Made by a program: the position numbers and the translations under genes. From the NCBI GenBank assembly GCA_041659805.1, contig JBAZXP010000001.1, positions 589 to 64,588 on the forward strand: 64,000 bases of DNA, in the 5' to 3' direction. The notes under the pieces were generated by a model that worked only from the letters and a program-made list of their open reading frames with translations, did not search any database and was not told where the DNA came from. Positions 3,001-61,780 of the stretch are shown here, piece by piece. Position 1 is the first letter of the stretch, and every line of letters starts with the position of its first letter. Origin of the DNA: Microgenomates group bacterium. GTDB taxonomy: Bacteria > Patescibacteriota > Microgenomatia > Daviesbacterales > UBA10151.

Positions 3001-4298
3001 CTCAACCAGCCTCAACTGGAGCTTCCACTGGTGGAACTACCAATGTTTATGGTGAATATGTTAAATCAGGAGGAACAGTTGGAGTAGGTGGAACCATAAA
3101 TTCTTATGGACTATACGTGGCTAATGGAACCATGAATACCACAGGTTTATCTACTAATACAGGTTTGTATGTAGAAACTCCAAGTGGGGCTGATACCAAT
3201 TATGCAGCCATTTTTGCAGGAGGAAATGTAGGTATTGGAACCACTGCCCCTGCTCATACTATTGATGTTGTTGGTGATGCAGGGTTATCTACAGGAACAT
3301 TATGGACTAATACTTCTGATTCACGAGTAAAACAAAATATAGAAACTATTCCTGATGCCCTGGGACTGATTGCCAGATTAAAGCCATCACAATATATGTA
3401 TACTCCTGAGTATTTGGCAAAACATCCTGAGATAAAAGATATAGAACATTATGGATTTATAGCCCAGGACTTCCAGGAAGTGTTCCCTGAAAGTATTTCT
3501 ACAGGAGCTGATGGATTCCTACAGGTTAATGCTTCCAATGTGATTCCTTACATGACCAAGGCTATTCAGGAGTTGTTGGCTAAATTTGAAAATCATGATA
3601 CAAGAATCAAGGATTTGGAGGATAGAATAGCTAGTGGTTCAGCGAATCAGCAGGTCAGCACATCAGCAGGTCAGCTATCCAGCACTTCTGCCGACATTGC
3701 TGATACTCTGAGTATTTCTGACACTCTGAACTTAACCCCACCATCAATTTTGCTCTCTACAATCAGTGCCCAGTTAGTTGATTTAGCAGTTACCTCTGAA
3801 GCTACTTTCTCAGGAAAATTAACAGCATATGAGGCTACTATTTCAGATACCTTTAAATCCTTGGGAGAAACTTTCCTGGGAAATACAACTGTGGCAGGTA
3901 ATTTTAATATTGATGGAACAATGAATATTTCCGGTAATTCCTTAAGCACCTTAGGTGATTTTTATATTCAAAATGGACCTCTGGCAGGAATTATAGATAT
4001 CTTTAATGGCAAAATAATTATTGATGGCTATGGAAATATCACAACTTCCGGACAAGTGACCACTCAAAAGGTAAATATCAGTGAATCTGCAGGACAAGCT
4101 ACCCTGCTTGCTGGTCAGAATTGGCTCACAATCATGAATACTCTGGTTACTGAAAATTCCCTAATCTTTATTACTCCAACTACTGTGACAGACAAAGTTA
4201 TATCTGTAACTCAAAAAAATTCAGGTTCAGATTTCACAGTTCAAATTCAAACTCCATCCACAACAGATATTAAATTTAACTGGTGGATCATTAATTAA
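3..4298 (+). CDS. Giant surface protein paralog, 5'-truncated by the window edge. The reading frame is open from nt 3; the listed M at 270 is internal. It carries a DUF2341-like domain, at least five Kelch-type propeller repeats, a second propeller/lectin-like region and a Peptidase_S74 intramolecular-chaperone (tail-fibre autoprocessing) domain, followed by a ~250-aa tail.
   Basis: The frame starting at nt 3 has no stop and reads TNASANGYTWGSS... The N-terminus aligns with an internal region of the 3056-aa ORF: '...IYSKPVTVNNTSAGT...DYDDVRISYNG...FTSSEINIRFAIQANI' versus 'YSKPVTITNSSAST...DFDDVRIGYNG...FTSSEIYIRFAIQADI'. The unit 'STVYKATIDASGNIGTFATTSQGQLP' repeats. The C-terminus 'SDSRVKQNIETIPDALGLIARLKPSQYMYTPEY...HYGFIAQDFQEVFPESI' matches the S74 IMC consensus SDxRxKxNI...GfIAQEvqeV.P. 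Confidence 0.8.
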   Translation, partial: TNASANGYTWGSSSTSAVDASGNVSASLIPTVTDTYDLGSASKEWNNIYVKSLTGTGTLNVGSISTSGNLTFTTPNSRIQAADSSSTNLLGANRYAYSKPVTITNSSASTLTTNTTYTLVITGSDAAAIYSSSQADFDDVRIGYNGNNEITRIIDKFTSSEIYIRFAIQADIAASGGTNSLYAIYWGNIAVSAPTDYTGSTLLDSANTASDWTTSDGTKIAVTGDTTNFTQTTSSTQLFASGSNMTAFSTTSQGQLPQTIMDHSSAVAAIGGANYLYIIGGATKSTVYKATIDASGNIGTFATTGQGQLPSNAYRTGSHILALNGTNYIYTLGGHNGSIRLSTVYKATIDASGNIGTFATTSQGQLPQVLEIPHESNMVTIGSTTYVYVIGGYGSSAVSTVYKATIDASGNIGTFATTSQGQLPATRYFHSSETVTIGGTTYVYVIGGGGPLSTVYKATIDASGNIGTFATTSQKQLPQSLQNHSSVVTSVAGTNYLFVIGGAGGTGLSTVYKATIDASGNIGTFATTSQGQLPIQLAYQTSNLVSVGGINYIYTLGGQDQQTYATKSTVYRSQIGGAGGTGVTVSRDLGAGTTIDLTGKNMITFWSRSPVTGDAANTVVEFSEDNATWQTSSALSLTTANTWEQQYWDISGIANAAKDAIRYIRFRLTGDILQLNFDLMRGESNFFGGTTSSSLDSTTTFGNNLYLNTEGGGILGLNYNSGSNGDFNIYNGATTSLFTVKQNGNVGIGTTNPQYLLDVNGTLGITGASSFTGAATFNSTINLTNSNTLTGVTNYIQANKGLSVGAGTTYYLDQSGNLSANTGTFASTLGVTGLITASGGLTLPTNQNLALSSGAGTYSQTFTGTTTDAMTVTASSLSTGTALTLTGPTSTGVTDHFVKISSDIGAASSLLNLNPDFSGSAVTGYGIYNLATDATANGNTNYGYYGSLTLTGNAAKTGVGLYSTLSTSSTTADTLIAADLATSVSGIVTTGTRNIYGLRSQPASTGASTGGTTNVYGEYVKSGGTVGVGGTINSYGLYVANGTMNTTGLSTNTGLYVETPSGADTNYAAIFAGGNVGIGTTAPAHTIDVVGDAGLSTGTLWTNTSDSRVKQNIETIPDALGLIARLKPSQYMYTPEYLAKHPEIKDIEHYGFIAQDFQEVFPESISTGADGFLQVNASNVIPYMTKAIQELLAKFENHDTRIKDLEDRIASGSANQQVSTSAGQLSSTSADIADTLSISDTLNLTPPSILLSTISAQLVDLAVTSEATFSGKLTAYEATISDTFKSLGETFLGNTTVAGNFNIDGTMNISGNSLSTLGDFYIQNGPLAGIIDIFNGKIIIDGYGNITTSGQVTTQKVNISESAGQATLLAGQNWLTIMNTLVTENSLIFITPTTVTDKVISVTQKNSGSDFTVQIQTPSTTDIKFNWWIIN
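845..1610 (+). repeat. Intragenic tandem repeats: five near-identical ~171-nt (57-aa) units encoding propeller blades.
   Basis: The string 'tccactgtttataaagcaactattgatgcttctggtaatataggaacttttgccaccac(c/t)(a/g)gtcagggacagttacc' recurs at about 855, 1026, 1197, 1359 and 1527. Periods are 171, 171, 162 and 168 nt. A sixth unit near 1700 is degenerate. Confidence 0.85.
3225..3625 (+). repeat. Long dispersed repeat, copy A, pairing with 59280..59680. It is the S74-domain coding block shared by the two giant paralogs and includes a ~105-nt stretch of 100% nucleotide identity.
   Basis: 'ggtattggaaccactgcccctgctcatactattgatgttgttggtgatgcagggttatctacaggaacattatggactaatacttctgattcacgagtaaa' is identical at 3236-3340 and 59289-59393. 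The flanks are about 90% identical. Confidence 0.85.
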
Positions 4299-23993: not shown

Positions 23994-26306
23994 ATGGTTC
24001 AAAAAATTAATCTCTGGTTAAGTTTAATATTCAAAATCTTAGTACTGGCTTTAGCTTTTTTAGCTCCCCTGTTTTTCTGGGGATATACGACTGAATTTTA
24101 TGAAACACCCAAATTTATCCTGGTATTAATAATTACTACATTATTTATAGTGCTGTGGATTACCAAGTGGATTATAAGCGGCAGGATTACTTTGACTGTT
24201 TCGAAACTTGACTTGCCCTTTCTATTGCTTTTAGTAGCTTTTGTTATCTCAATGTTTTTTGCTCCTTCCCGGTCAATTGCTATTTTTGGAAATCTACCAA
24301 GACTGCATGGTGGACTAATCAGCTTTGCCCTTTATGCAACATTTTATTTTGTACTGGCAGCAAATTTTAAAAAAATCTCAACCATTAAAGATGTTGTCTA
24401 CGCGCTTCTTGCTTCATCAATCATCCTTTCTATTATTAGTTTACTTTCTTACGCAGGAATAAATATTTTTTCTCTCTCCTGGACGTCTGGCGCTGCTTTT
24501 ACACCAACAGGCTCCAGTTTCTCAACAGTAGCAATATTACTTCTATTACTTCCTTTTCCGATTACTGCAATTTTATATGGTTCAAAAATAACTGACTTCG
24601 AAACAGATTCCCAAAGTGAAGAATTAGGATTGCCTATCAGCTCTTTAGTCGGAGACAATGCTTCCCTAAACCAATTAACCATTAAAATCATCTGGTCAGT
24701 CGTACTGGGATTATTCGCCATTACAATCGTTTTAATTGGTAATGTCCCTATGTACATTGCAGCAGTCATAGTACTGGCTTTAGTTCTATTTGTAACACCT
24801 CCAAATTCAATTGGTAAAAATGCAGCTTTCTTGTTTACCCCAATTTTGATTGCCCTGATTATTGCCTTCATGTCTTTCATACCTGTAGGAGGATCTAAGA
24901 ATATTCTTTATAATAAAGCCCAGAACTTCCCCCGTGAGCTACAACTTCCTTTTACAACTTCCTGGAAGATATCTATCTCTTCTTTCAGAGATTCACCTAT
25001 TTACGGATCAGGTCCTGCCTCCTACTTAAATGATTTTACTCTTTATAAACCGGTTGAGTTTAACAACACGAAATTATGGAGTGGAAAATTCGATCAAGCC
25101 TTCAATGAATATTTGCAAGTACTGGCAACTCTTGGAGTAATCGGTCTGATTGCACTTTTGCTTTTAACCCTAACTGCCTTAACCATCGCTTTCAAAAGCC
25201 TCTCTACCCCTAAAACAGGTAGTATCCGCGTACCTTTGGCAATTACATCAATAACATTCTTTATTATATTAGCTTTACATACTTCAACTTTAACTCTCTG
25301 GATTGTGGGTATTATTCTAATAATCTCCTTCCTGGCATTGACCAGACAAGAAAATAGCGAAATTGTACTAAGCGATACAAACGGTATCTCATCTAAAATA
25401 AAAGTTAATCCATTGCCTGTCATAATGGCAATTATTGTCATTGGATTGCTTTGTCTTGTCTATAAAGAGGCTGTACCGGCACTAATTGCTGATTATCATC
25501 ATCGCCAAGCCTTAAAAGCAGTAACATTAGGACAGGGCTTGGTTGCCTACAATGAATTAGTTCTGGCTGAAAAATTCAACCCAAATGTAGATTTATACAG
25601 AACTGATCTGGCTCAAACCAATTTTGCGTTGGCAAATGCAATAGCATCAAGCAAAGGCCCTACAGAAACCAGTCCTTCCGGATCACTTACAGATACCGAC
25701 AAACAGAATATTCAGGTTCTTCTATCCCAATCAATCAATGAAGCCAGAGCAGCTACATCTTTAAATCAAAATAATTCCGGAAATTGGGAGATACTTGGAT
25801 CAATTTATCAGCAAATTTCAGGAGTAGCTAAAGATGCTCTTCAATTCGCGCTTGATTCTTACGGCAGAGCCATTCAAAAAGATCCGCTAAACCCTAACTT
25901 AAGGCTTACGGTAGGTGGAATTTACTATTCAGCTAAAAATTATGATATGGCGATCCGTTTCTTCTCTGATGCAGCCAATCTAAAACCTGACTATGCAAAC
26001 TCCTACTACAACTTAGCAATCGCATACAGAGAAAAAGGTGATTTCAATAGTGCTATAACATTCATACAACAAGCTCTAACCCTTATAGATAGCAAAAGTC
26101 CTGACTACAAAACAGCAACAGACTTACTGGAACAATTAAAATCCAAGTCTACAACTAACACTTCTCCAATTATTCAGGCAGAAAGTTCTCCTTCAGCATT
26201 ACAAGATGAAAAACTACCAAAAGTACTAAAGCTTCCAAAACCTGAGAATATTACAACCCCATCTGCTATCAAGAAAACCACTCCTACCCCAACCCCTGCA
26301 GAATAA
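23994..26306 (+). CDS. Polytopic membrane protein with an O-antigen-ligase-like (Wzy_C-type) core and C-terminal TPR repeats.
   Basis: It has about 12 TM helices. The Gly-rich loop 'YGSGPASY' resembles the ligase G.G.G.F/Y motif. The C-terminal TPR repeats include 'YYNLAIAYREKGDFNSAITFIQQAL'. The Pro/Thr tail is 'TPTPTPAE'. Confidence 0.45.
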   Translation: MVQKINLWLSLIFKILVLALAFLAPLFFWGYTTEFYETPKFILVLIITTLFIVLWITKWIISGRITLTVSKLDLPFLLLLVAFVISMFFAPSRSIAIFGNLPRLHGGLISFALYATFYFVLAANFKKISTIKDVVYALLASSIILSIISLLSYAGINIFSLSWTSGAAFTPTGSSFSTVAILLLLLPFPITAILYGSKITDFETDSQSEELGLPISSLVGDNASLNQLTIKIIWSVVLGLFAITIVLIGNVPMYIAAVIVLALVLFVTPPNSIGKNAAFLFTPILIALIIAFMSFIPVGGSKNILYNKAQNFPRELQLPFTTSWKISISSFRDSPIYGSGPASYLNDFTLYKPVEFNNTKLWSGKFDQAFNEYLQVLATLGVIGLIALLLLTLTALTIAFKSLSTPKTGSIRVPLAITSITFFIILALHTSTLTLWIVGIILIISFLALTRQENSEIVLSDTNGISSKIKVNPLPVIMAIIVIGLLCLVYKEAVPALIADYHHRQALKAVTLGQGLVAYNELVLAEKFNPNVDLYRTDLAQTNFALANAIASSKGPTETSPSGSLTDTDKQNIQVLLSQSINEARAATSLNQNNSGNWEILGSIYQQISGVAKDALQFALDSYGRAIQKDPLNPNLRLTVGGIYYSAKNYDMAIRFFSDAANLKPDYANSYYNLAIAYREKGDFNSAITFIQQALTLIDSKSPDYKTATDLLEQLKSKSTTNTSPIIQAESSPSALQDEKLPKVLKLPKPENITTPSAIKKTTPTPTPAE

Positions 26307-26447
26307 TCTTGTGGACCTGAGCAGAATAAGCAAAGCTTGCGACCTACGGTCTTCGAATCGCATTTTTGTGGACTCACTGAGAATAAGAACCTTTGCTTCG
26401 CAAAAGAACCTTGCAACGCTTCGCGTCTTCGAACCCAGAATATAATG
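26307..26447 (-). repeat. Two decayed tRNA-3'-half-like units downstream (minus sense) of tRNA-Ala(CGC).
   Basis: Units begin (plus strand) 'gtggacctgagcagaataag' and 'gtggactcactgagaataag', compared with the intact 'gtggacttgccgggaattgaaccc'. On the minus strand they read '..GGTTCTTATTCTCAGTGAGTCCAC', a degenerate T-arm plus acceptor. Confidence 0.6.
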
Positions 26448-26518
26448 TGGACTTGCCGGGAATTGAACCCGGATCCCAGCAATGCGAATGCTATGTTCTG
26501 CCGTTGAACTACAAGCCC
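26448..26518 (-). tRNA. tRNA-Ala (anticodon CGC).
   Basis: The reverse complement folds as GGGCTTG-TA-GTTC-AACGGCA-GAAC-A-TAGCA-TTCGCAT-TGCTG-GGAT-CCGGG-TTCAATT-CCCGG-CAAGTCC-A. The G3-U70 alanine identity pair is present. CCA is not encoded. Confidence 0.75.
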
Positions 26519-26698
26519 CTACCGATCTGCTGATCCTCTGATATTCTGAAGTGTGGACCCGAGGGGAATAAGACATCTTCGCTTCGCTCAGAGATCTTGA
26601 TCCCCTCTCTTTTTGTCCACTGCGCTTCGCTTGTGGACCCGAGGGGAATGAGTCTTCGAGGACTCGCCTCTTCCCCTCCTATTCCACCTCACTTCGTT
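26519..26698 (-). repeat. Two further decayed tRNA-like units between the two tRNA-Ala genes.
   Basis: 'gtggacccgaggggaataag...' and 'gtggacccgaggggaatgag...' share the intact tRNA 3' end 'gtggacccgaggggaattgaacccc'. Both carry GAGGGGA..(23-33 nt)..TTCCCCTC inverted repeats instead of a canonical T arm. Confidence 0.6.
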
Positions 26699-26770
26699 CG
26701 GTGGACCCGAGGGGAATTGAACCCCTTATCTTCTCTATGCCATAGAGACGTCGTACCGGTGGACCACGGG
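26699..26770 (-). tRNA. tRNA-Ala (anticodon GGC) with a slightly non-canonical D-arm.
   Basis: The reverse complement folds as GGGCCCG-TG-GTCC-ACCGGTA-CGAC-G-TCTCT-ATGGCAT-AGAGA-AGATA-AGGGG-TTCAATT-CCCCT-CGGGTCC-A. G3-U70 is present. The D-stem has 3 bp plus one mismatch, and position 32 is A. Confidence 0.55.
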
Positions 26771-26832
26771 CCCTCATGGGTAGTATAAAGTATAGAGTAG
26801 AAAGTATAAAGGGGGTTTTAGCTGCTTTATAC

Positions 26833-27960
26833 CTACTTGAAGACAGAACGTGGATTTAGAGCTATACCCTTGTAACGAATTTCAAAGTGAAGATGAATAC
26901 CGGTAGATCTACCTGTTGTCCCCATTCTTCCTATTGTTTGACCTCTTGATACCCTTTCACCATTTGATACATAGACATTGGCAAAATGTGCATACAAAGT
27001 TGTATAGCCATTGCCATGATCAATCACTACCCTATTTCCATAACCAGAATTATCAGGCCAACCTGCCACAATCACTGTTCCTCCGTCTGCAGCAACAACA
27101 GCAGGACCAGACCGATCAGCAATATCAAGCGCCGGATGATACCAGGCAAAATACTGAGTAACAATACCTTTTGTCGGATAAATAAAATTTGCGCCTCCCG
27201 GAGCCTGGAAGGTTGATGAAGCAACCCCGGTATAGAATTGACCGACAGTAGGGGCTGACCTCTGAATAACAGGTGCAGCAGCAGGCTGAACACCATTAGG
27301 CACAACTAATACCTGACCAACTTTTAGCTTAAAATCATCAGGAACATCATTAAAAGGAAAGTCCAAGATACCCTGCGCCTCAGCTTCATATTTTTTAGCC
27401 ACAGATTCCAAAGTATCGCCTGATTTCACTGTGTGCACAACACCGGCCACAGGCAGGATCTTGATTTTTTGACCCGGCTTAATTGAATTTACGCCTTCCA
27501 AATTATTAGCCCATTTGATGGTATCTGTAGAAATGCCAAAATGCTCAGCAATGGTTGACAGGGTATCCCCTGATTTAACTTCATATTCAATAGTTTCTGA
27601 TCTGGGTTTTTGAGAAATATTGGTTCTGGTGTCATATAAAGAGTTTAAGACAGGATCATCAATTGAACTTTGATCATATATATTTACAAAACGAGGATCT
27701 TCCGGACCTACCCCCGGAAATGAAGCAGACAAAATTGTCTGTCCTCCAAAGGCTCCTGATGTAATGATTCCAAAAGCAGATAACCCTACCATACTGCCAT
27801 GCCAGATCTTCTTTTGCAAAATCCCCCGTTTGAACATCAGGACATCAACTGTAAGATTTTTAAAAGCTTCAAAGAGTGAGGCAAGATAAACCACTTTTTG
27901 GTTCAAGTAGATAAGTAGAAAACTGATAAAAAGACGAAAATCCTTAAAGAGAGAATTCAC
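26833..27960 (-). CDS. LysM-domain M23 family peptidoglycan endopeptidase.
   Basis: There are two LysM repeats, 'YEVKSGDTLSTIAEHFGISTDTIKWANNL' and 'HTVKSGDTLESVAKKYE...'. The M23 core is 'VIDHGNGYTTLYAHF...RGQTIGRMGTTGRSTGIHLHFEI'. The true start is probably the internal Met, 'MFKRGILQKK', just before a TM helix. Confidence 0.85.
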   Translation of the reverse strand: MNSLFKDFRLFISFLLIYLNQKVVYLASLFEAFKNLTVDVLMFKRGILQKKIWHGSMVGLSAFGIITSGAFGGQTILSASFPGVGPEDPRFVNIYDQSSIDDPVLNSLYDTRTNISQKPRSETIEYEVKSGDTLSTIAEHFGISTDTIKWANNLEGVNSIKPGQKIKILPVAGVVHTVKSGDTLESVAKKYEAEAQGILDFPFNDVPDDFKLKVGQVLVVPNGVQPAAAPVIQRSAPTVGQFYTGVASSTFQAPGGANFIYPTKGIVTQYFAWYHPALDIADRSGPAVVAADGGTVIVAGWPDNSGYGNRVVIDHGNGYTTLYAHFANVYVSNGERVSRGQTIGRMGTTGRSTGIHLHFEIRYKGIALNPRSVFK

Positions 27961-28017: not shown

Positions 28018-28455
28018 TTATTCTGAATCTGTCAATGAAGAAGGTTGAGACAGAAGCGCTTGTCTTCTTTTAAATCTATCTTCGATAATTATCATTAAAT
28101 CAGTTTCTCGAGCAGATCTGCTTTGTTCCAAAGGACTGATTTGATCATTTCGCCATCCCGTTTCTAATTCAGAATCAAGATCTTCTCCTGCCTGTATAGC
28201 ATATTTTCTAAAATTTTCATTTGTATAATGAGCCATTTTTATCCAATGATAAGGTTCAATCACACCATCTACCACCTCAGGATAAAGGACTTCCTGAAGT
28301 CTAACTGATTCAGCAAGAGACAAAATTTCGTATGATACCTGATGCCTTAGTGTTGGGGGTACTGCTCTCCATAATTTTCTAATCAACTCCTGGGTAGAAT
28401 GATCCGGTAGCTCTAAATTCAACCCCTCCTCCATAAATTCAATACTTTTTGGCAT
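28018..28455 (-). CDS. Hypothetical protein.
   Basis: It is a 145-aa ORF with no recognisable motifs. Codon usage is typical of the window. Confidence 0.4.
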   Translation of the reverse strand: MPKSIEFMEEGLNLELPDHSTQELIRKLWRAVPPTLRHQVSYEILSLAESVRLQEVLYPEVVDGVIEPYHWIKMAHYTNENFRKYAIQAGEDLDSELETGWRNDQISPLEQSRSARETDLMIIIEDRFKRRQALLSQPSSLTDSE

Positions 28456-28519
28456 TCTAATTGAAAATTATATATATAATAAGACCTAAGTCAATAGTGC
28501 TATTAAAATTTGAATATTA

Positions 28520-28849
28520 TTGGAATTAATACAGTTTGATATTTATTCAATTATTGAAAAGAATAAACTAACTAATATATACTTTAAATCTATGGATGAT
28601 ACTCAAAAAATGCTTCAGGTCATTATTAATGGTCAAAGTTCCCTTAAGCAGGAGCTTACAACTAGAATTGATAAATTAGATGAAAAATTAAGCGGGAGAA
28701 TAGACAAATTGGACCAAAAATTAACTAATAGAATAGACAAATTAGGCAAACAGCTTGCCTATTTAGAAGATGATGCTCCAACCAGAGAAGAACATGATGT
28801 CCTAAAAAAGAGAGTAGATAAAATAGAAAAAACAATCGTTGCAGCCTAA
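28520..28849 (+). CDS. Coiled-coil protein with 11-residue tandem repeats.
   Basis: The repeats are 'RIDKLDEKLSG / RIDKLDQKLTN / RIDKLGKQLAY'. Confidence 0.4.
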   Translation: MELIQFDIYSIIEKNKLTNIYFKSMDDTQKMLQVIINGQSSLKQELTTRIDKLDEKLSGRIDKLDQKLTNRIDKLGKQLAYLEDDAPTREEHDVLKKRVDKIEKTIVAA

Positions 28850-28914
28850 AAAATTACCCTACTCCACTCCAAATAATAGTTGATTCTTAATCTTACTTAT
28901 GCTACTTTACTCTT

Positions 28915-29313
28915 ATGGAATTTGAAGTACCATTAGAAAAAGCTACTGAAATTAGAAGATGGGCAGAAAAAGAAGGAGCTGAATTATTGCGTCCAGAAGC
29001 ACCAGGAGCATTTATCTCTTTACATAGAACCATTCAGGTTATAAACACAGAACCCTTAGTTGTTAGTTTCAGTAGATACGAAGATCTTGATATAGGTGCC
29101 ACCCCAAATAACTCCATAATGAGAATTACTACCAGTGATAAAATAGCACAACAAGAAGGATTTCAGAAAATTATTTCACCTGACTCTCAATCAAAACCAG
29201 AAAGACCTCGTTTTAACCTTAACCCTGTACCGCTTGACCGTTCAAAATTGCCATCTCGAGAGGAAGTTGAGAAAAGCTTCGAAAAGGTGAGACGAGACTC
29301 AAAAAAGAATTAG
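28915..29313 (+). CDS. Hypothetical protein.
   Basis: It is a 132-aa ORF with no recognisable motifs. Confidence 0.35.
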   Translation: MEFEVPLEKATEIRRWAEKEGAELLRPEAPGAFISLHRTIQVINTEPLVVSFSRYEDLDIGATPNNSIMRITTSDKIAQQEGFQKIISPDSQSKPERPRFNLNPVPLDRSKLPSREEVEKSFEKVRRDSKKN

Positions 29314-29456
29314 ACAGAAGAAGAAAACTTCTTTATTCCAATGATCCGGATTTGAATAATATTATAATTAGATAATACATATTCCCTATTCCGATATTTA
29401 TTCAATTATATAAAATTCTAATCTCTGCCTGACTTGAAAATAAATGAATATAATGT

Positions 29457-29627
29457 GCCCGCTTGGAACCAAGGGCGTTAAACGAGGAAGTTTTTGACAG
29501 TAGGGGGAGGTCCGAACACTTTCGGAGGGGGAAAACTTTCCCCCGCTAAGCAAAAACTGACGAGTAGCCCGGCTTCCGCGGGCAGAGTTTTACCACGCTT
29601 TTGCGGTCAAAAGCGTGAAAGAAAAAA
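29457..29627 (+). ncRNA. Copy 1 of a ~172-nt repeated structured element: a closing helix, two conserved hairpins and a 10-bp terminal hairpin. It is a candidate novel ncRNA or recombination element.
   Basis: The three blocks 'gcccgcttggaa', 'gggggaggtccgaacactttcggagggggaaaactttcccccg' and 'cttccgcgggcagagttttaccacgcttttgcggtcaaaagcgtgaaagaaaaaa' are 100% identical to those at 61374-61546. GCCCGCttGGAA pairs with TTCCGCGGGC. The inner hairpins are TCCGAA-CACT-TTCGGA, GGGGGAAA-ac-TTTCCCCC and CACGCTTTTG-CGGT-CAAAAGCGTG. A TATAAT box lies at 29449-29454. Confidence 0.45.
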
Positions 29628-29633
29628 CGGAAT

Positions 29634-31040
29634 TTATCTGACGTCTTTGAGGGAATCTAAGAACTCCTTGTTAGAATCTGTTTTGGAGATTCTTTCCAAC
29701 ACAGCTTCTGTTCTCTGATCTGGGGGAAGCAGAGAAACCATTCTTCTGGTAACCACAATTTTCTTATATTCTTCTTCTACAAACAGTAGTTGTTCCTGTC
29801 TGGTTCCGGAAGCTTCAATATTAATAGCAGGGAAAATTCTTCTTTCAGCCAGACTTCTGTCCAAGTGGAGCTCCATGTTACCTGTTCCTTTGAATTCCTC
29901 ATAAATCAAGTCATCCATTCTGGAACCTGTATCAACCAAAGCTGTACCAATAATAGTTAAAGATCCACCTTCTTCACAGTTTCTGGCAGCACCAAAGAAT
30001 CTTTTTGGAGGATACAATGCTGCAGGATCAAAACCTCCGGTTAAAGTTCTTCCTGAAGGAGGTACAGACAGGTTATAAGCACGCCCCAATCTGGTAATGG
30101 AATCCAAGAGTATAACCACATCTTTGCCTTCTTCTACCAGCCTTTTAGCCCGTTCCAGGGCAATCTCTGCAGCAGTTGTTTGATCTTCAGCTGCTTCATC
30201 AAAGTTGGATGAAATAACATCACCTTTAATAGACCTTGAAAGATCAGTTACTTCTTCCGGTCTCTCACCTACTAATACTGCCATTAAGATAACTTCAGGA
30301 TGGTTTTTGGTAATTCCGGCAGCAATATCTTTTAAGATGGTTGTTTTACCAGCTTTCGGAGGAGATACAATTAATCCTCTTTGTCCGAATCCGATCGGAG
30401 ACATCAAATCAATCACTCTTTGGGATAATGGGAATTTGCCTGTTTCCAGCTTTAATAATTTGTTTGGGTAAATTGCTGTTAAGTCTTCAAATTTTGTTCT
30501 TTTGGGAGCATTTCTTCCGCCATCTACATTAACAAATTTTTCTGCGTCTACCCCATTGATGGTTGAAACCTGCAATAAACCAAAATATCTTTCATTTTCC
30601 TTTGGTTGTCTGGCAGCTCCGGTGACTAAATCACCCATTCTGAGGTTAAATCTGCGGATTTGAGAAGCAGAAATATAAACATCTCTGTCTGAAGGAGTAT
30701 ATTTTGGTCGCAAGAATCCATGTCCTTCAGACATGATATCCAAAATTCCTGAAACATCTTCTGTGGGAACGTCTCTGTTGTCTCGCTCTGAGTATCCATT
30801 ATTACCTCCGTTATATCTTGGTCTATAACCACTTTGCTGATATCCTGATCCACCATTATTCTGCTCTTCTGGTTTCCGATCTTCTGATGTTCCGATATTC
30901 CGGTCTTCCGCAATTGGAGCCCCCACCACTTCATCCACATCAACTTTGGCCTCGTCAGAGGTCTTGTCAGTTAAATCTTTTGGTTTAAAAGAACGAGTAT
31001 TTGGCATATCTAATGAAATAAAATTCTTTTTGGGAATCAA
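29634..31040 (-). CDS. rho: Transcription termination factor Rho, with a low-complexity N-terminal insertion.
   Basis: The Rho RNA-binding (cold-shock-like) domain is '[15 protein letters not shown]...[22 protein letters not shown]'. Walker A is '[19 protein letters not shown]'. The Q- and R-loop region is present. The insertion is '[26 protein letters not shown]'. Confidence 0.9.
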
Positions 31041-40866: not shown

Positions 40867-40933
40867 ATTATTATAACAAAAAAGCCACCATTGCTGGTGG
40901 CTTTTTCAAAAAGACTATCTCGTTACTTAAAAA

Positions 40934-42889: not shown

Positions 42890-42939
42890 GGGGTAGATTA
42901 TATTTTGAGCTTATTATGATCTCTATAAGAACCTGAAAA

Positions 42940-43020
42940 CTTCGTTTTCAGAACCTTGCGACCGAGTCTTAAGAACCTCTCTCTTTGTTCGAGAACCTTG
43001 CGACCTTCGGTCTTTGGAAA
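42940..43020. repeat. Two copies of a ~30-nt dispersed hairpin repeat with consensus GAACCTTGCGACC-UNCG-GGTCTTCGAAC. Related copies lie at about 26328-26356 and 26404-26436.
   Basis: The copies are 'gaaccttgcgaccgagtcttaagaacc' and 'gaaccttgcgaccttcggtctttggaaac'. They compare with 'cttgcgacctacggtcttcgaatc' and 'gaaccttgcaacgcttcgcgtcttcgaaccc'. The stems GACC/GGTC and ACGC/GCGT covary around a UUCG or UACG loop. Confidence 0.55.
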
Positions 43021-43751
43021 CTTGATTTATAATTTCTAGCTATATTGGAAACTAGTCCCTGCCCAAGACTAGTTCCCAAGACAGCCAGCAATCCATGTTC
43101 CCAAGACAGAACACAATAATTACCCATTTTGTCAAACCGTGCCATAAAATGGTCTCTTGACAAGACCGGACATTTATGGAAATGTAGAAGATGAAATATG
43201 ATTTCTACTGCTTAGAAATTATATTCTCGAAATTAATAAAGGGCATTGCTATTCGAGTCCGTCTGCGGTAGTAATGCTCTTTTTATTGGCTGCAAAGCCA
43301 TCAAGCTCTGCTTATATGGAGCTGAGACAATTGCCTCACCCCTACCTCTTCTACATTTTCAATTATTAAAGTTCTTTTCAACCCCTAACCATTAAAATCA
43401 AACTCTGATCTCTATTACCCATCATCTGCTTAACTTGATCTGCCAAAGGATTTAACCTTAGTCTGTTTATCTTCCTTGGACTGATTTTCTTTGATTTAAA
43501 ACTTAGCATTACGGCAATCATAGTACAGTAAAAATTATTTGTCAAGAATACTAAATCCCATAGCTTTATTTGTTCTAATTTCCCATAGGCTTGTAGTAAT
43601 ATTAATAGGCTTTGTGCCTTATATTAGGTTGTTGTATCAATCTAATCCGAAGCCTACTTTTTTTCTTTCCACCAAAAATTTAGGATGTGGATAAGTCTTT
43701 ACAGCTAACTTGCCTTCAATCCAGCCTGGGGTTACAATGTGAAGTAGCAAT

Positions 43752-51315: not shown

Positions 51316-54300
51316 ATGTCTCTGCCCCAAAACCAATCTCAACAGTTAGTGCCCGTAGGTCAGGCTGCCAAGATATTAGATGTTTCTGTTGATACTATCC
51401 GCAGATGGGAGAAAAAAGGAATACTTCAATCCACCAGGCCAAATGGTAAAGACCGTTATTTTTCCCTGGAAGATTTACATAAAGTTAAAGCCTCCAAGCC
51501 AATCTTAATCTCTGATGCTGCTAAAACTTTGGGTGTTTCCCCTGCCATTTTAAGAAAAATGGAAAAGGAAGGAAAGATTCAACCACAAAGAGATGAAAAA
51601 GGTACTAGGATCTATGATCAAAACATCTTGAAAACTGTTAATTCAAATATTACTACTGTAGAAGAATTACTTGATCTAAGTAGATCAGAAGGTAACTCTC
51701 AGTATCATATCCCTTTAACAGAAAGCAAGTTACATGAGTATGCAAATAGCTATGAGCAAGTGGCAAGTAGCCAGAAATTTCTAGCTCTCAGCCACAAGCT
51801 ACAAGCTACAAGCATTGTTTCAGGTGTATTAGCCTCATTAGTTTTGGCCGTCTTAGTTCTAGCCAGAGTTTCTAATTTTGATTTAGCCAATTTAGCTATG
51901 AGCTATGGGCAAGTGGCAAGTGGCCAGAAGCAATTAGCCACTAGCTATAAGCCCCTTGCACTTAGCAATTCTAACGTCCTTGCTGCTACGACCTCAAACC
52001 ATTACCTGAATTTTGCTACAGACTTAATAGTAGAGGGAGATTTAGCAGTAGGGGGATTACTTAATAATATAAAACTAATCCCAGGAGGAGATAATGTTAA
52101 TAGGACTTTAACAGTTTCTGCTCCTGTTACTTTAGACCAAGATTTATCTACTGCTAGTTCCCCTACTTTTGCAGGTTTAACAGTACTTTCCCCAATTAAT
52201 GCGCCTTCTGCTTCTACCTCAACTTTAAGTTTAACAGGTACTAAAGATCAAATTACTTTTGATGTATCAGGTGTTAAAAGCACATTAACCTGGACTCCTA
52301 CCTCTGCTCAAACTTTAACCTTACCCAATGCTACAGATACCCTGGTTGGTAGAGCTACTACAGATACTTTAACCAATAAAACAATTTCAGGATCTGATAA
52401 CACCATCTCCAATATCCAGTCCTCTGCTCTGTCTGGAAGCTATACTGGTATCACAGGATTAGGAACAATTACCACAGGCACCTGGAACGGGACAAAAATA
52501 GGGACAACCTATGGGGGAACAGGGCTCACAACATATACAACAGGTGATTTACTATATAGTAGCGCATCAAATACTTTAGCTAATTTAGCAGTAGGAACTG
52601 CTGGGCAGGTATTAACAGTCTCAGGAGGCCTACCTGCCTGGACTGCCTCTTCCTCTATTGTTGATTTAACTTCTGTTGCTTCAAATATACTGCCTTCAGT
52701 CAATAACACATATGATTTAGGATCTTTAACTAATCAATGGCAAGATGCCTGGTTTGCAGGAACTTTAACTGTGGCAGGAAATATAGTTGGAGCTACCACA
52801 GGAACTTCTGGTTATTGGACCAGAAATGATGCTACCGGAGATCTATATTCAGCCACACTCACAGATCAAATAGGTATAGGCACTACTGCTCCTGCTTCCC
52901 AGTTAGAAATTAAAGCCACAACTAATCCTGCTTTAAGTTTATATGCAGGAAGTGGCACAGACAATATCTTTCAGGTCTTCAATAATGCTGGGGATACTAC
53001 CTACTTTGCTGTTGATTCAACAGGTAAAATGTCTTCCTCTGCTTTTCAATTAACTGATGCTGCTAATGCTGTAGTGGGTACTGCTATTGCTGGAGGCTGG
53101 ACTTTAAATGGTAATACCTTTACCTACAGAAGAATTATTACTATCACCAACTCATCAGGATCAACTATGCCTAAGTATTATGAAATATCCTTACCTCTTT
53201 CTTCTTCTGATTCTAATCATGTATATACTAATTCTCAACAAGCTTCTCCTTACAAGGATTTTAGGATAGCATATGATTCTGGTACCCCTACAGAGATAGC
53301 CAGGAATGTTTCATCTTTTACTTCATCAAATGTTACTACCACTTTCCAACTTCAAGCCAGTATAGCCAACTCAGGAACTGCTACCTATTATATTTATTAC
53401 TCAAATTCAACTTTGGCTACTACCCCTGATACTTATACAGGTACTACTGTTTTGGATAATGGGGATGCAGCTATTGATTGGACTTCTGGTTCTAGCGATT
53501 TTGCTTTATCTCAAGAAACTACAATAAAACATGAAGGTACAGGAAGTTTAAAAACAGTTTCTTCATTGGGCACAATGGGAGCTTTTGCTACAACATCTCA
53601 AGGACAGCTATCAACAATACTTAATTCCCCAACTTCCTTTTCTACCTCTTTAGGCGGAACAAATTATGTTTATGTATTGGGCGGAAATAATGGATCCGCC
53701 GATGTATCGACTGTTTACAAAGCTGATTTAAATACTACAACTGGAAATATTTCTACCTTTACTACCACTTCTCAAGGGCAGCTGCCGCAAGTATTATCCG
53801 GAGCTGCTTCTGTAGCTGCTGTCCCGTCTATTGATGGAGGGACTGGGGCTGATGGGACACTGGATTTATCCTTAGGTAGTGGCGCTGGTGGATGTAATGG
53901 TACTGGTCTTTCCTGGGCTGGATCTACTTGTACTATAGATACTGATACTAAATCCACTTTTAATTTTACTACTATTAATGTTTCAGCTGGTACCACCTTA
54001 ACTACTTCTGGCACTACTTTTCCTACCCTTAAAGCTACAGGATCTGTAACAATAGCGGGAGCTATCGACTTAGCAGGTAAAGGCTATGCAGGAGGATTAA
54101 CAAGTGGCAATGCAGGATGCAACGGTTACGGACCAGGTTTTGGTCGGGCTTTTAATGGCAATGCAACCCAAGGCAATTGTGCTTTTGCAACATCAATAAA
54201 TGCTGGTGGTGGAGGTGGCTATGGCGGTGCAGGAGGCACTGGAGCAGTGGGTTCTGTTGCAGGAACAACTTATGACACAGCAGCAGTCGGTAGTGGTGGT

Positions 54301-57300
54301 GGTGGAGGTGGAAATGGTGGTAATGGCTATGGCGGTGCAGGAGGAGGAGGAATACAAATTCAAAGCGGAAGCACGATTTCTATAACCGGCACAATTTCAG
54401 CAAATGGCGCAAATGGAATTACTACTGCAGCTTATGCTGGCGGTGGCGGAGGTGGTAGCGGCGGAAGAATAACCTTGCAAGCTGCAAGCGCAATTACCAA
54501 CTCAGGCACCATCAGCGCCAATGGAGGTAATGGTGGAGGCAGTGATGCTGGTGGAAGAGGTGGAGGTGGCGGAGGCGGCGGAAGAATAACCATTCAGGAT
54601 AGCAGTGGAGCTGCAGGGGGAACTATCACTGCTACTTATGGAACTGGTGCTATTGCTACTCAAGGAAATGGTGCCAATGGAACAGCTGGTGTAATAACAC
54701 AAACAGCTAATCCTACCTTAATTTATCTTTTAGGCGGTATTAATGGATCTACCAGACAATCCACTGTCTATAAATCAAGTATTACAGGATCAGATTTAGG
54801 AGCTTTTGATACCACCTCCCAAGCTCAACTACTTGTAGCGCTCTCTTACCCAACTTCTCAAACTATAACTATTAGCAATACCAGCTATGTATATGTCCTG
54901 GGTGGAAACAGTGCTTCCGGTGATGTTTCTACTGTGTATAGATCAACCGTAACTTCCGGTAATTTAGAAACTTTTGCCACAACAAACCAAGGTCAACTTC
55001 CACAAGTTTTATCCAAGCACTCCTCCTCTACTGTTAGTATCAGTGGAACCAATTATGTCTATGTTATAGGAGGCATTAACGGGTCAACCGCCCAATCAAC
55101 CGTATATAAATCAACCGTAGATGGTTCTGGTAATTTATCCAGTTTTGATACAACAAATCAAGGACAATTACCAGCTGCTTTGTATTCCACTTCCTCAAAT
55201 ATAGCTACTGTTGGAGGAACAAGTTACCTTTATGTACTTGGGGGAATAAATAGTGGTGGGAGTAAGGTTAGTACAGTGTATAAAGCTCAGATTGGGGCTA
55301 CTGGTGACATAGGAGCATTTTCTACCACAGGTCAAAATCAGCTCCCTGCTGCTTTAGGTTCCCTTTCTTCTGTTACAGCAACAGTAGGTACTTCACAATA
55401 TATTTATACTTTGGGTGGAGCTGGTACTTCTGCCTCAGTCAGCACTGTGTATAAAGCCAAGATTAATGATATGAGCAGCTCATATGCTACCAAAACCTTA
55501 ACTTCCACTGATTTAACCAATAAAAATGATTTAACTTTCTGGGTTTACTCAGATACTACAGGAGCATATATGCACTTTGATATCTATGATTCAACAGCTG
55601 GTTGGACTAATTGTGCTGATTTTACTATTTCCTCTGCTTCTACCTGGGAACAAAAGAGTTGTGATATATCAGCTGTAGCTGCTGCTTCCAAAGATGGGAT
55701 CACATCTTTAAGGATTTCTACTGATTCAACAGTTAATATTACTTCCTCCTTTACCACTTACTTTGATGATATCCAAGCTACACCTAATTTTGCTTCCTTT
55801 TCTAACACTACCTCCTATGCCAGAGCTATCCTTGGAGCTGCTAATTTAGCTGTTAATGCCCAGGGTACAGGTTTGGTCCAAATTAACTACTCTGCCTCCC
55901 CTAATGCTGCAGCAGGATCTGGAGGCTTTGCTCTGTATGATGGCACTACTAATGCTTTGTTTGTAGTTGATGGAACTGGGACAGTTACCACAGGTATCTG
56001 GAATGGGACTGATATAGCTGTTACTGCTGGAGGTACAGGAGCCTCTACTGCTGCTGATGCCAGAACTAATTTAGGACTGGCTATAGGAACCAATGTTCAA
56101 GCCTATGATGCTGATTTAACTACTTATGCAGGTATTACTCCTTCTGCTAATGTTCAAACACTCTTGGGTTCTGCTGATTATGCTACAGCTAGAACCAATT
56201 TAGGCTTAGGAACTATGGCTACTCAAAACATAGCAGGAATATCTGCAGCTATTTTACCTGATACTAATAATAGTTATGATTTAGGATCTGTTACCAATCA
56301 ATGGCAGGATGCCTGGTTTGCTGGTAATTTAACTGTAGCTGGGAATTTAATAGGAGCATCATCTGGCACTGCTGGGTATTTCTCAAGATCAGGCACTACC
56401 CTTTCTACTGCTACTGCTGGAGATAATATTACTACCACTGGATCTGTAGGAGTTGGTACTACCTCCCCTACTTCTACTGCTAAACTTGATGTAGCTGGAA
56501 ATATAGCTTTGTCTACTAATGGTTCTTCTATTAAAGCTTTGGATTCCTCTACCTCAAATACTGTTGGAGGAAATAGCTTTATTTATTCCAAACCAGTCAC
56601 AGTAAATAACACTTCTGCAGGTACAATGTCCCAAAATACCACCTACACTTTAATGCTGACAGGCACAGATGCTTCTGATGTTTATTCCAATTCCCAGGCT
56701 GATTATGATGATGTGAGAATTTCGTATAACGGAACAGAAATAGCAAGGGTGGTTGATAAATTTACATCATCTGAGATTAATATCAGGTTTGCCATCCAGG
56801 CTAATATCCTAACTTCTGCCTCTGATGCAAATTATAGAATTCATTATGGAAATGCCGGTCTTTCTGCTCCTACTGCTTATTCTGGATCTACTGTTTTAGA
56901 TCAGTCTGATGCTGCTTCAGATTGGACTTCTTCTGATACTGCCCAAATTGTCATGTCTGATGATACAACCTACTATGTAGAAACTACCGGCAGCGTCAAA
57001 GGAACAGGACAATCCAGCAACTTACAGGCCTTTGCCACCACCAGTCAAGGACAGCTACCTGATACAGTTGCTAACAATTCAGTAACCTCAGCCACCATAG
57101 GTGGAACTACTTATGTTTACTCACTTGGAACAAATGGTGGTTCAGGTACTAATTCTGCTGTTTATAAAGCTGTTCTTGACGGGTCAAATAATCTTGGATC
57201 ATTTAGCACTACCAACCAGGCCCAGTTCCCACAAAACTTTAGTTATACCGCTCCCTTTACTGCTACTTTCAGTGGTACAACCTACTTATATGCTATAGGA

Positions 57301-61351: not shown

Positions 61352-61373
61352 CATAAAAAGTACTCACAAATTT

Positions 61374-61546
61374 GCCCGCTTGGAATGAAAAGCGTAAAAA
61401 TCTCGACAAGCCAATATCAGGGGGAGGTCCGAACACTTTCGGAGGGGGAAAACTTTCCCCCGATTAATTGGCGAGGAGAGATTAGCTTTTCTTCCGCGGG
61501 CAGAGTTTTACCACGCTTTTGCGGTCAAAAGCGTGAAAGAAAAAAA
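61374..61546 (+). ncRNA. Copy 2 of the ~172-nt repeated structured element (see 29457..29627).
   Basis: The three conserved blocks are identical to copy 1. Variable segment 1 is 34 nt in both copies, and variable segment 2 is 27 and 28 nt, yet the variable sequences have diverged. Confidence 0.45.
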
Positions 61547-61780
61547 TATTATCTTTTTTTATATGCGTCTTTGGTGGCAAAGACGCCCAAAGCCACTTTG
61601 ACAGGAAGTAAGCAAAGCTTGCCTTTTGCTTTCGCAAAAGGTGTACGCTAAATTTTAACGCGATTAGCGCGGAGCGCGAGGCGCAATAGCGACTCATTCC
61701 AAGTCAAAGAAATAACTAAAGCTGCAGAAAAAGAGACTTGGTGATTGAATTTTTTTGATAATTCCCTTATTCTTTAGTTA

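Follow-up and report, generated by a model that had tools for sequence, protein, structure and literature searches.

Two intergenic sites in the window, i.e., the entire 64,000-nt stretch of Daviesbacterales DNA that was analyzed, carry versions of one element of about 170 nt, and the question raised by this locus is whether such an element acts as an RNA, as the end of a transcript, or as mobile or recombining DNA. The initial annotation had described two plus-strand copies sharing three identical blocks, with segments of conserved length but free sequence variation in between, and had considered a paralogous family of structured non-coding RNAs (ncRNAs) and a recombination, attachment or cassette-boundary site as equally fitting; as a whole, this interpretation is partly supported by the present analysis. 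Both copies, referred to here as S, were recovered on the plus strand at the annotated sites (Table 1), copy 1 between the gene for a 132-aa hypothetical protein and the convergent rho gene, and copy 2 between the gene for a 284-aa hypothetical protein on one side and a second element, P', plus the atp operon on the other. The identical blocks comprise 12 nt (29457-29468 and 61374-61385), 43 nt (29503-29545 and 61420-61462) and, as seen in the pairwise alignment, approximately 55 nt (29573-29627 and 61491-61545). The 43-mer as well as a 45-mer from the third block occur exactly twice each in the window, with none expected on the basis of 100 shuffles. The intervening segments indeed measure 34/34 nt and 27/28 nt, and they are identical at 13 of 34 and approximately 17 of 30 positions, the latter count including the junction bases that flank the second arm.

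Table 1. Location of S, P' and X and of their parts. Positions refer to the window unless locus L006 is given; CM, score of the covariance model.
Feature	Position	Strand	Remarks
S copy 1, whole element	29456..29633	+	CM 142.3 bits; main hairpin, linker, 3' hairpin and A-rich tail reaching the convergent rho stop codon (29634)
S copy 1, main hairpin	29456-29584
S copy 1, basal helix 5' strand UGCCCGC, UU bulge, GGAA	29456..29468	+	partner 29574-29584 (UUCC GCGGGCA)
S copy 1, long covarying stem, 5' arm	29469..29502	+	holds conserved GUUAA(A) loop and G.A tandems
S copy 1, invariant apical module G5A-GG-hairpin1(UCCGAA-CACU-UUCGGA)-G5-AAAACUUU-C5-G	29503..29545	+	two competing pairings
S copy 1, long stem, 3' arm	29546..29573	+	complement of 29469-29502; holds conserved UAG
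S copy 1, UUCC and basal helix 3' strand GCGGGCA	29574..29584	+
S copy 1, U-rich linker GAGUUUUAC and 10-bp 3' hairpin CACGCUUUUG-CGGU-CAAAAGCGUG	29585..29617	+	3' module class alpha
S copy 2, whole element	61373..61552	+	CM 130.5 bits
S copy 2, main hairpin	61373-61502
S copy 2, 5' arm	61386-61419
S copy 2, apex	61420-61462
S copy 2, 3' arm	61463-61491
S copy 2, linker	61503-61511
S copy 2, 3' hairpin	61512-61535		followed by A-rich tail
P' element	61545..61715	-	convergent, tail-to-tail with S copy 2
P' 3' hairpin GCGUCUUUG-CCAC-CAAAGACGC	61565-61586	-
X element, first copy	L006 868-1027	+	AUGAYGGG...CCCRUCAU closing helix around GC-rich interior, then CUUCC-GUCAAAG
X element, second copy	L006 16505-16632	-	closing helix, GC-rich interior and CUUCC-GUCAAAG as in the first copy

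The variation of the intervening segments turned out not to be free. In each copy, the two segments are mutually complementary and form one long helix; therefore, S consists of a 129-nt irregular hairpin, a 3' hairpin and an A-rich tail. As the two strands of this helix, the segments change by compensatory substitutions, and they hold a conserved asymmetric loop (5' GUUAAA opposite 3' UAG) as well as tandem G.A pairs. Pairing of the cognate arms was calculated at -17.5 and -24.0 kcal/mol for the window copies, as compared to just -6 to -8 kcal/mol when an arm was combined with that of the other copy. When all known copies were considered, cognate 5' and 3' arms ranged from -16.5 to -24 kcal/mol and non-cognate arms from -5 to -13 kcal/mol. 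The minimum free energies of the whole elements were -68.5 kcal/mol for copy 1 and -75.0 kcal/mol for copy 2 (z = -3.9 and -6.5, respectively), and no shuffled sequence folded equally well. The closing helix, the UCCGAA-CACU-UUCGGA hairpin and the 10-bp terminal hairpin (29594-29617 and 61512-61535) described previously are all present, and the tail that follows the latter is A-rich, as had been noted, and not U-rich.

Pattern scans, nhmmer and a covariance model detected seven copies of S in three or four Daviesbacteria genomes, i.e., seven copies per approximately 275 kb sampled. Besides the two in the window, two paralogs (loci L001 and L006) reside on one shared contig of the Candidatus Daviesbacteria MAG GCA_028687915.1, which is the genome closest to the window (Rho 91% identical), two form a head-to-head pair at locus L011 (Rho 77% identical), and one was found on a JGI contig (L002) from the same sample as L011. 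The 36-nt pattern of the tip matched one GTDB representative genome, and a 19-base degenerate pattern matched one real metagenome contig and, by chance, one other sequence (L003). S was absent from the rho-region loci of seven other Daviesbacteria (~96 kb; nhmmer and covariance model) and from the phage and plasmid BLAST collections, while pattern scans of IMG/VR returned nothing or chance matches; on these grounds, a phage or plasmid origin was rejected. The lack of copies in other Daviesbacteria and in the viral, phage and plasmid sets implies that the family is narrow or diverges fast past recognition. S was not described in the full-text literature searched, and no Rfam family matched it. 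S is a previously undescribed family of hairpin-shaped, RNA-like elements of about 170 bases from a few Daviesbacteria, members of the tiny-genome CPR bacteria.

The basal helix of S comprises 7-11 bp with the sequence GCCCGC/GCGGGC in the window, GCUCAC/GUGAGC in one L011 copy and CUUUGAC/GUCAAAG in L002 and the other L011 copy. It is followed by a bulge of 1-2 nt (UU, U or CC) and by a 4-bp helix GGAA/UUCC, in which UUCU in L001 results in a G-U pair and GAAA/UUUC in L011 represents a compensatory change. Above it lie a helix of 4-7 bp, the conserved asymmetric loop with 5' GU(U/A/C)AA(A) opposite 3' (G/U)UAG, a stem with tandem G.A/A.G pairs (e.g., GUGAAC/GUGAAC in L011+), a short helix and, finally, the tip. 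On the 3' side of the main hairpin, a U-rich linker leads to a perfect hairpin of 9-10 bp and the A-rich tail. Across the copies, the basal helix is 100% paired with double changes in 7 of 11 pairs, and the stem of the 3' hairpin covaries as well (L006, L002, L011). In the alignment of the seven copies to covariance model R1, which is fitted to that model, standard pairs occupied 93% of the cells as compared to 76% in shuffles and 38-58% when the partners were slid by 1-3 columns. Both-sided changes were seen in 24 of 41 base pairs of this fitted alignment, and none of 500 shuffles reached the observed values; these counts rest on few independent events since there are just seven related copies from three or four closely related genomes.

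The kind of mispairing that is tolerated points to one strand. G-U or U-G combinations filled 15 cells of the seven-copy alignment as compared to only two for A-C or C-A, and G.A or A.G combinations filled 12. The excess of G-U over A-C indicates that the window plus strand folds as a single strand and that the complementary strand would fold worse, although the same tolerance of G-T would be expected for a hairpin folding in single-stranded DNA. Conserved arms serving as protein-recognition sites in a recombination site, as had been suggested, are not what this asymmetry indicates. Moreover, window copy 1 and the copies of L001 and L006, here termed type 1, are about 90% identical and are separated by compensatory double substitutions (G-C to A-U, C-G to U-A, AGU/GCU to UGC/GCA), which implies that the fold was maintained after these copies had separated. 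The five further copies, the strong covariation and the strand-specific pairing with its G-U and tandem G.A pairs agree with the view of S as a paralogous structured ncRNA family.

The least variable part of S is its tip. The 43-nt block is identical in four of the seven copies (window copies 1 and 2, L001 and L002) and differs by two changes in L006, and the architecture of two G5 runs and one C5 run was kept in all seven. Both L011 copies differ in the sequence of hairpin 1, and one of them carries an insertion of 19 nt, but the design is still G5A - N1-2 - hairpin 1 - (A) - G5 - loop - C3-5 - G. The single C run is able to pair with either G run, and in the window copies the two resulting folds differ by only 0-0.7 kcal/mol. 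The previously annotated hairpin of GGGGGAAA and UUUCCCCC exists as a pairing, but it is merely one of two competitors for the single C5 run. Hairpin 2, formed by the second G run and the C run, covaries in L011+ (GGGUG/CACCC), and conservation of the first G run nevertheless extends to all seven copies despite this covariation of the local hairpin. The tip may therefore be a two-state module or an exposed G-rich binding tract. We propose that the invariant tip is the working end of S, where competition of two G5 runs for one C5 run would create two near-isoenergetic conformers, each exposing one G-rich tract. Judging from the sequence alone, one common partner, a protein or else a C/U-rich RNA, could bind there, with the tip as its platform or switch; UCCCCC sites able to pair with the G runs showed no placement pattern. 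The long stem would act as a spacer or protein handle that needs merely to stay helical, which would account for the complete divergence of the paralogs in this part.

S shares its base and its 3' end with other elements. nhmmer searches with the S alignment matched the opposite strand of a second conserved element, P', adjoining S in both the window and GCA_028687915.1. P' is about 170 nt long and repeats the design of S around an interior of its own: the 5' strand of the basal helix CUUUGAC/GUCAAAG, a UU bulge and the GGAA of GGAA/UUCC precede the interior, and CUUCC-N-GUCAAAG, the U-rich linker UGGCUUUGG, a hairpin of 9-10 bp and an A-rich tail follow it. The interior adopts a distinct multi-hairpin fold with GNRA loops (GAAA, GAUA, GAAG; -56 kcal/mol, z of about -4) and also holds CGUUAAAA...UUUAG. 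Between the window and the ortholog at L001 3066-3245 (+), one hairpin of P' was completely rewritten and another one inserted. A third body, X, is present twice in GCA_028687915.1 (L006) and bears the 3' half of this chassis; the copy at L006 868-1027 also has the beta hairpin. Neither P' nor X matched an Rfam family. The 3' modules fall into three classes (alpha, beta and gamma), which are combined with different bodies, and the 38-nt 3' module GTCAAAGTGGCTTTGGGCGTCTTTGCCACCAAAGACGC is identical on P' of the window, X of L006 and S of L011. Units are arranged head-to-head in L001 (S/P'), L006 (S/X) and L011 (S/S), with 5' ends approximately 12-23 nt apart, and tail-to-tail in the case of S copy 2 and P' in the window. 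A generic scan of all loci for the chassis yielded no members beyond S and P'. The stretch from the basal helix through the 3' hairpin probably behaves as one cassette, able to duplicate or move and to swap parts with P' and X.

Comparison of orthologous sites revealed both filled and empty ones. In L006, a block of 377 nt comprising S and X is located between flanks that lie 21 nt apart in the window near 43.7 kb, and neither X copy has a counterpart at the orthologous positions of the window (near 43.7 kb and 23.65 kb). In the window, 430 nt with S copy 2 and P' lie between the 284-aa gene and the atp operon, whereas the homologous genes in locus L009 are at most 31 nt apart. Likewise, the S pair of L011 is found between tRNA genes and the stop codon of a Wzy-like gene, a site at which L015 has no S. 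Type-1 S occupies three non-homologous loci in two genomes: it adjoins rho in the window, whereas in GCA_028687915.1 it is located beside a giant-protein gene and beside a PIN-domain gene, and the rho locus is without S. Therefore, gain, loss or movement of the units took place on the time scale at which species diverge. The initial annotation had raised the possibility that the copies flank segments that vary between strains; this holds partly and in another sense, namely that orthologous sites either have or lack the elements themselves. No target-site duplication was observed at the junctions examined. The idea that insertion of S remodeled the C-terminus of Rho was rejected, as SLKDVR is conserved in all relatives, with S present or absent.

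The interval between the M23 peptidase gene and rho is variable across Daviesbacteria. The LysM/M23 peptidase gene comes immediately, or nearly so, after rho in most relatives, while in the window three small genes (145, 109 and 132 aa; 28018-29313) and S copy 1 are located between the M23 peptidase gene (26833-27960) and rho (29634-31040).

Consensus scans detected neither a sigma-70-type promoter nor a U-tract terminator at either window copy, although canonical promoters and U-tract terminators do occur elsewhere in this genome. The TATAAT pointed out previously is present at 29449-29454, but a -35 partner is missing, and the other copies have no conserved counterpart upstream. Moreover, two promoters would hardly fit into the short distance between the 5' ends of head-to-head units. 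A textbook bidirectional terminator, AAAAAGCCACCA-TTGC-TGGTGGCTTTTT, is located at 40879-40906 of the window, and thus U-tract terminators are used here, unlike the 3' hairpins of S. An intrinsic terminator, defined as a G+C-rich hairpin with a U tract within 0-2 nt, was found at neither copy: the tails of S read AAAGAAAAAA, and the U run on the reverse strand precedes the hairpin instead of following it. S resembles Rho-independent terminators in that it has a perfect, G+C-containing 3' hairpin of 9-10 bp near gene ends, but it differs in that the U-rich linker comes before the hairpin and the A-rich tail after it, no terminator site exists on either strand, and the 3' hairpin makes up just the last 24 nt of a conserved structure of about 170 nt. 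The alternative of a plain terminator in the 3' untranslated region of one gene family, with unconstrained spacers, is likewise at odds with the unrelated genes upstream of the different S copies and with the constrained variable parts.

S fails the defining tests of Rfam families, terminators, attC sites, MITEs, retrons, guide-RNA scaffolds and Y RNAs. With Rfam 15 at the gathering threshold, the window and six loci yielded tRNAs alone, and permissive searches (E up to 10 or 1) gave Twister-sister as the best hit, with 17.6 bits as compared to a gathering score of 34 and on the opposite strand; a known RNA family was thus rejected for S. The window lacks genes for a transposase, integrase, reverse transcriptase, Cas/TnpB or TROVE protein, and no REP/RAYT or IS200-IS605 Y1 HUH transposase gene was found in the ~71 kb read of the 1.13-Mb genome. 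For MITEs, the basal helix sequence should not change as it does between copies (GCCCGC, GCUCAC, CUUUGAC), the filled/empty junction shows no duplication, and similarity is block-wise. Retron msr-msd, in which a1/a2 repeats enclose msr hairpins ahead of a long msd hairpin next to a reverse transcriptase gene, was rejected given the lack of an RVT-family gene in the window and the different order of parts in S, with the long stem first and the hairpins at the tip. The same applies to TnpB/IscB omega-RNA and CRISPR tracr-type scaffolds, as no nuclease or Cas gene is nearby; such scaffolds carry the guide at one end, and the variable segments of S are internal, mutually paired and without matches of at least 14 nt elsewhere in the window. 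A coding function was rejected since six-frame translations contain stops and the frames are broken and shifted between copies, which is due to the 3' arm of 27 vs. 28 nt, and a chimeric query of all S-encoded peptides against a set of 5.8 billion protein clusters found nothing at E ≤10.

The closest likenesses are to families that differ from S in other ways. Sibling sRNA families such as Qrr1-5, LhrC1-5 and the csRNAs are lineage-restricted and comprise several paralogs per genome, sometimes adjacent, with an invariant functional segment and diverged remaining parts. S likewise has several paralogs with a common invariant segment, some of them adjacent, and is lineage-restricted, but the promoter scan was negative, the invariant part is the 43-nt structured tip of a 129-nt hairpin instead of a brief single-stranded seed, a U-tailed terminator is lacking, the copies move between loci, and base and 3' end are common to unrelated interiors. 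Y RNAs, YrlA and small SRP RNA have ends that form a long stem with conserved internal loops and a conserved apical module; SRP domain IV has a loop of several nucleotides on the 5' side and one on the 3' side together with sheared G.A pairs, and Y RNAs occur as several paralogs. S is alike in its long end-to-end stem, asymmetric loop, G.A pairs and conserved apex, and GGUCCGA and the C run show a short, tentative resemblance to Y RNA motifs. A bacterial Y RNA, which would be encoded next to rsr and have a Ro-binding stem, was nevertheless rejected, because neither Y RNA, YrlA, SRP nor 6S was matched in Rfam even at E up to 10 and no TROVE domain or Rsr gene was detected among the window proteins scanned, and the additional 3' hairpin and the mobility of S are unlike these RNAs. 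ERIC/IRU, REP/BIME, BOX, RUP and Correia elements are imperfect palindromes of approximately 100-150 nt, located in intergenic regions and often after stop codons or between convergent genes; they are polymorphic for presence and absence between relatives and are able to fold in transcripts. S shares their intergenic placement and presence/absence variation but differs by block-wise identity, by arms rewritten through compensatory change, by strand asymmetry, by the lack of conserved terminal inverted repeats or target-site duplication, and by its low copy number. By analogy, S would appear to work most like a sibling sRNA or RNP-scaffold family while genomically behaving like ERIC/REP-type repeats.

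The explanation we favor, with roughly even confidence, is that S is a lineage-restricted, duplicating or mobile family of strand-specific small ncRNAs of approximately 170-190 nt encoded on the window plus strand. Because the fold is elaborate, strand-specific and actively maintained and the tip is invariant, a functional single-stranded molecule is indicated, the simplest candidate being a small RNA. A frozen tip, a covarying base and 3' hairpin, and rewritten arms are difficult to explain by a purely selfish DNA repeat. Lacking a U tract, the 3' hairpin is more likely to define or protect the 3' end than to work as a classical terminator. The missing sigma-70-like promoter upstream of the window copies, the A's after the 3' hairpin in a genome with canonical U-tract terminators, and the lack of a partner protein encoded nearby in the window all speak against an RNA gene.

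An explanation at the DNA level is, in our view, possible but on the unlikely side: S, P' and X would be non-autonomous mobile DNA of the REP, IS200-type PATE or MITE kind, mobilized by a transposase that is encoded elsewhere and recognizes hairpins of single-stranded DNA, with the tip and the 3' hairpin as recognition sites and any RNA being incidental. What keeps such an element in play is the mobility of the units, together with modules that are identical in diverged genomes and with the lack of convincing promoters. The filled and empty orthologous sites, the same stem type at three different loci of two genomes, and the identity of the 38-nt 3' module and the 43-nt tip among genomes with Rho just 77-91% identical are all in line with it, as are the intergenic placement, often 10-16 nt past the stop codon of a convergent gene, the related hairpins (CUUUUG...CAAAAG) at unit ends and the conserved (G/U)UAG. 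However, similarity among the copies is not uniform as descent predicts, since arms were completely rewritten by compensatory changes and the tip was frozen, and both the elaborate five-helix fold with its conserved asymmetric loop and tandem G.A pairs and the low density, with no copy in the ~96 kb of other Daviesbacteria, speak against it. Terminal inverted repeats of conserved sequence, a target-site duplication at the one well-defined junction and a transposase in the window are lacking as well. Site-specific recombination, attachment or an integron-attC-like cassette boundary, the alternative put forward by the initial annotation, is highly improbable. It would fit a hairpin conserved in structure and variable in sequence that is found at synteny breakpoints, beside small variable genes between rho and the M23 peptidase gene, and GUUAAAC of copy 1 resembles the attC R' consensus GTTRRRY. 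Nonetheless, paired R'' (RYYYAAC) and R' cores are not present at the ends of S, which read GCCCGCUUGGAA and UUCCGCGGGC; the GTT motif lies within the internal loop and was not kept in copy 2 (GUAAAAA) or L006 (GUCAAAC). The invariant tip is the opposite of the variable terminal structure of attC, no cassette array was seen, and no integrase Pfam match was obtained in the window.

S might also be a cis-acting module at the end of transcripts, i.e., a large, stable structure in the 3' untranslated region of the upstream gene without function in trans, which would insulate convergent genes, block 3' exonucleases, or pause or terminate RNA polymerase; we consider this unlikely. A protein-coding gene lies upstream on the same strand in six of the seven copies (three of these have a partner element or tRNA genes in between), the stop codon of a convergent gene is located 10-48 nt from the 3' hairpin in the case of four copies (window copy 1, L001, L002 and L011+), and a short U run follows the basal helix (GUUUUAC, GGAUUUUUGC), all of which, together with the missing promoter, would suit a transcript end. 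Yet a U tract does not follow the 3' hairpin in a genome that has canonical terminators, a tip invariant across genomes and a conserved internal loop are needless in a stabilizer, and the upstream genes are unrelated. Furthermore, P' is divergent from the neighboring atp operon, and the genes that flank the site of S copy 2 and P' are adjacent in L009 and need no such module.

Returning to the small RNA reading, we also considered that S, P' and X represent different RNA "payloads" on one interchangeable mobile chassis, composed of basal helix, U-rich linker, 3' hairpin and A-rich tail, that copies itself between loci and between co-resident Daviesbacteria genomes. This extension is rather improbable. 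As the units start at the base of the fold and most end in an A-rich tail, copying via an RNA intermediate is possible; if true, the elements would correspond, in bacteria, to SINE-like retroposed small-RNA genes, or they would form a new class of RNA-gene cassette. For CPR/Patescibacteria, whose genomes are very small, no ncRNAs other than the universal ones were described in the literature searched. Here, a genome of ~1.1 Mb keeps several copies of an elaborate RNA-like fold with a frozen tip and a changeable stem, and other structured elements make use of the same base and 3' end. Should the copies be RNAs, they would represent a regulator or RNP scaffold that is new and confined to one Daviesbacteria lineage, and they would show cleanly, in nature, how compensatory evolution maintains a helix; if the cassette moves, it would offer a tractable case of small RNA genes spreading and being re-tooled in reduced genomes. 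The narrow distribution limits this impact for now.

Several further features of the window were noted. A gene-free region of 863 nt (42890-43751), at the edge of which the S+X block is inserted in the related genome, is partly conserved with L006 1028-1250 and contains a canonical TTGACA-N17-TATGAT site near 43515-43545 (-) and three GGTCGCAAGGTTCT repeats near 42950-43010; it is not claimed as oriC, as only one perfect DnaA-box 9-mer (TTATCCACA, 43686-43694, -) was found. At 26300-26740 of the window, as well as at L011 5340-5410, several partial copies of tRNA 3' ends of 17-20 nt (TGTGGAC...GGAAT / GAGAAT) are present, in the window beside or between the real tRNA genes at 26448-26518 and 26702-26773 (-); several are followed by an AAGCAAAGCTTGC-type hairpin that is found inside P' too. 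Integration at tRNA genes could have left them behind, or they could form another small repeat family. Finally, the giant genes at 270-4298 (1342 aa) and 51316-60486 (3056 aa) of the window consist of diverged tandem units of approximately 162-174 nt, with C-terminal parts that share about 75% identity, both between the two and with a 929-aa ORF whose end lies 15 nt from S in L001.
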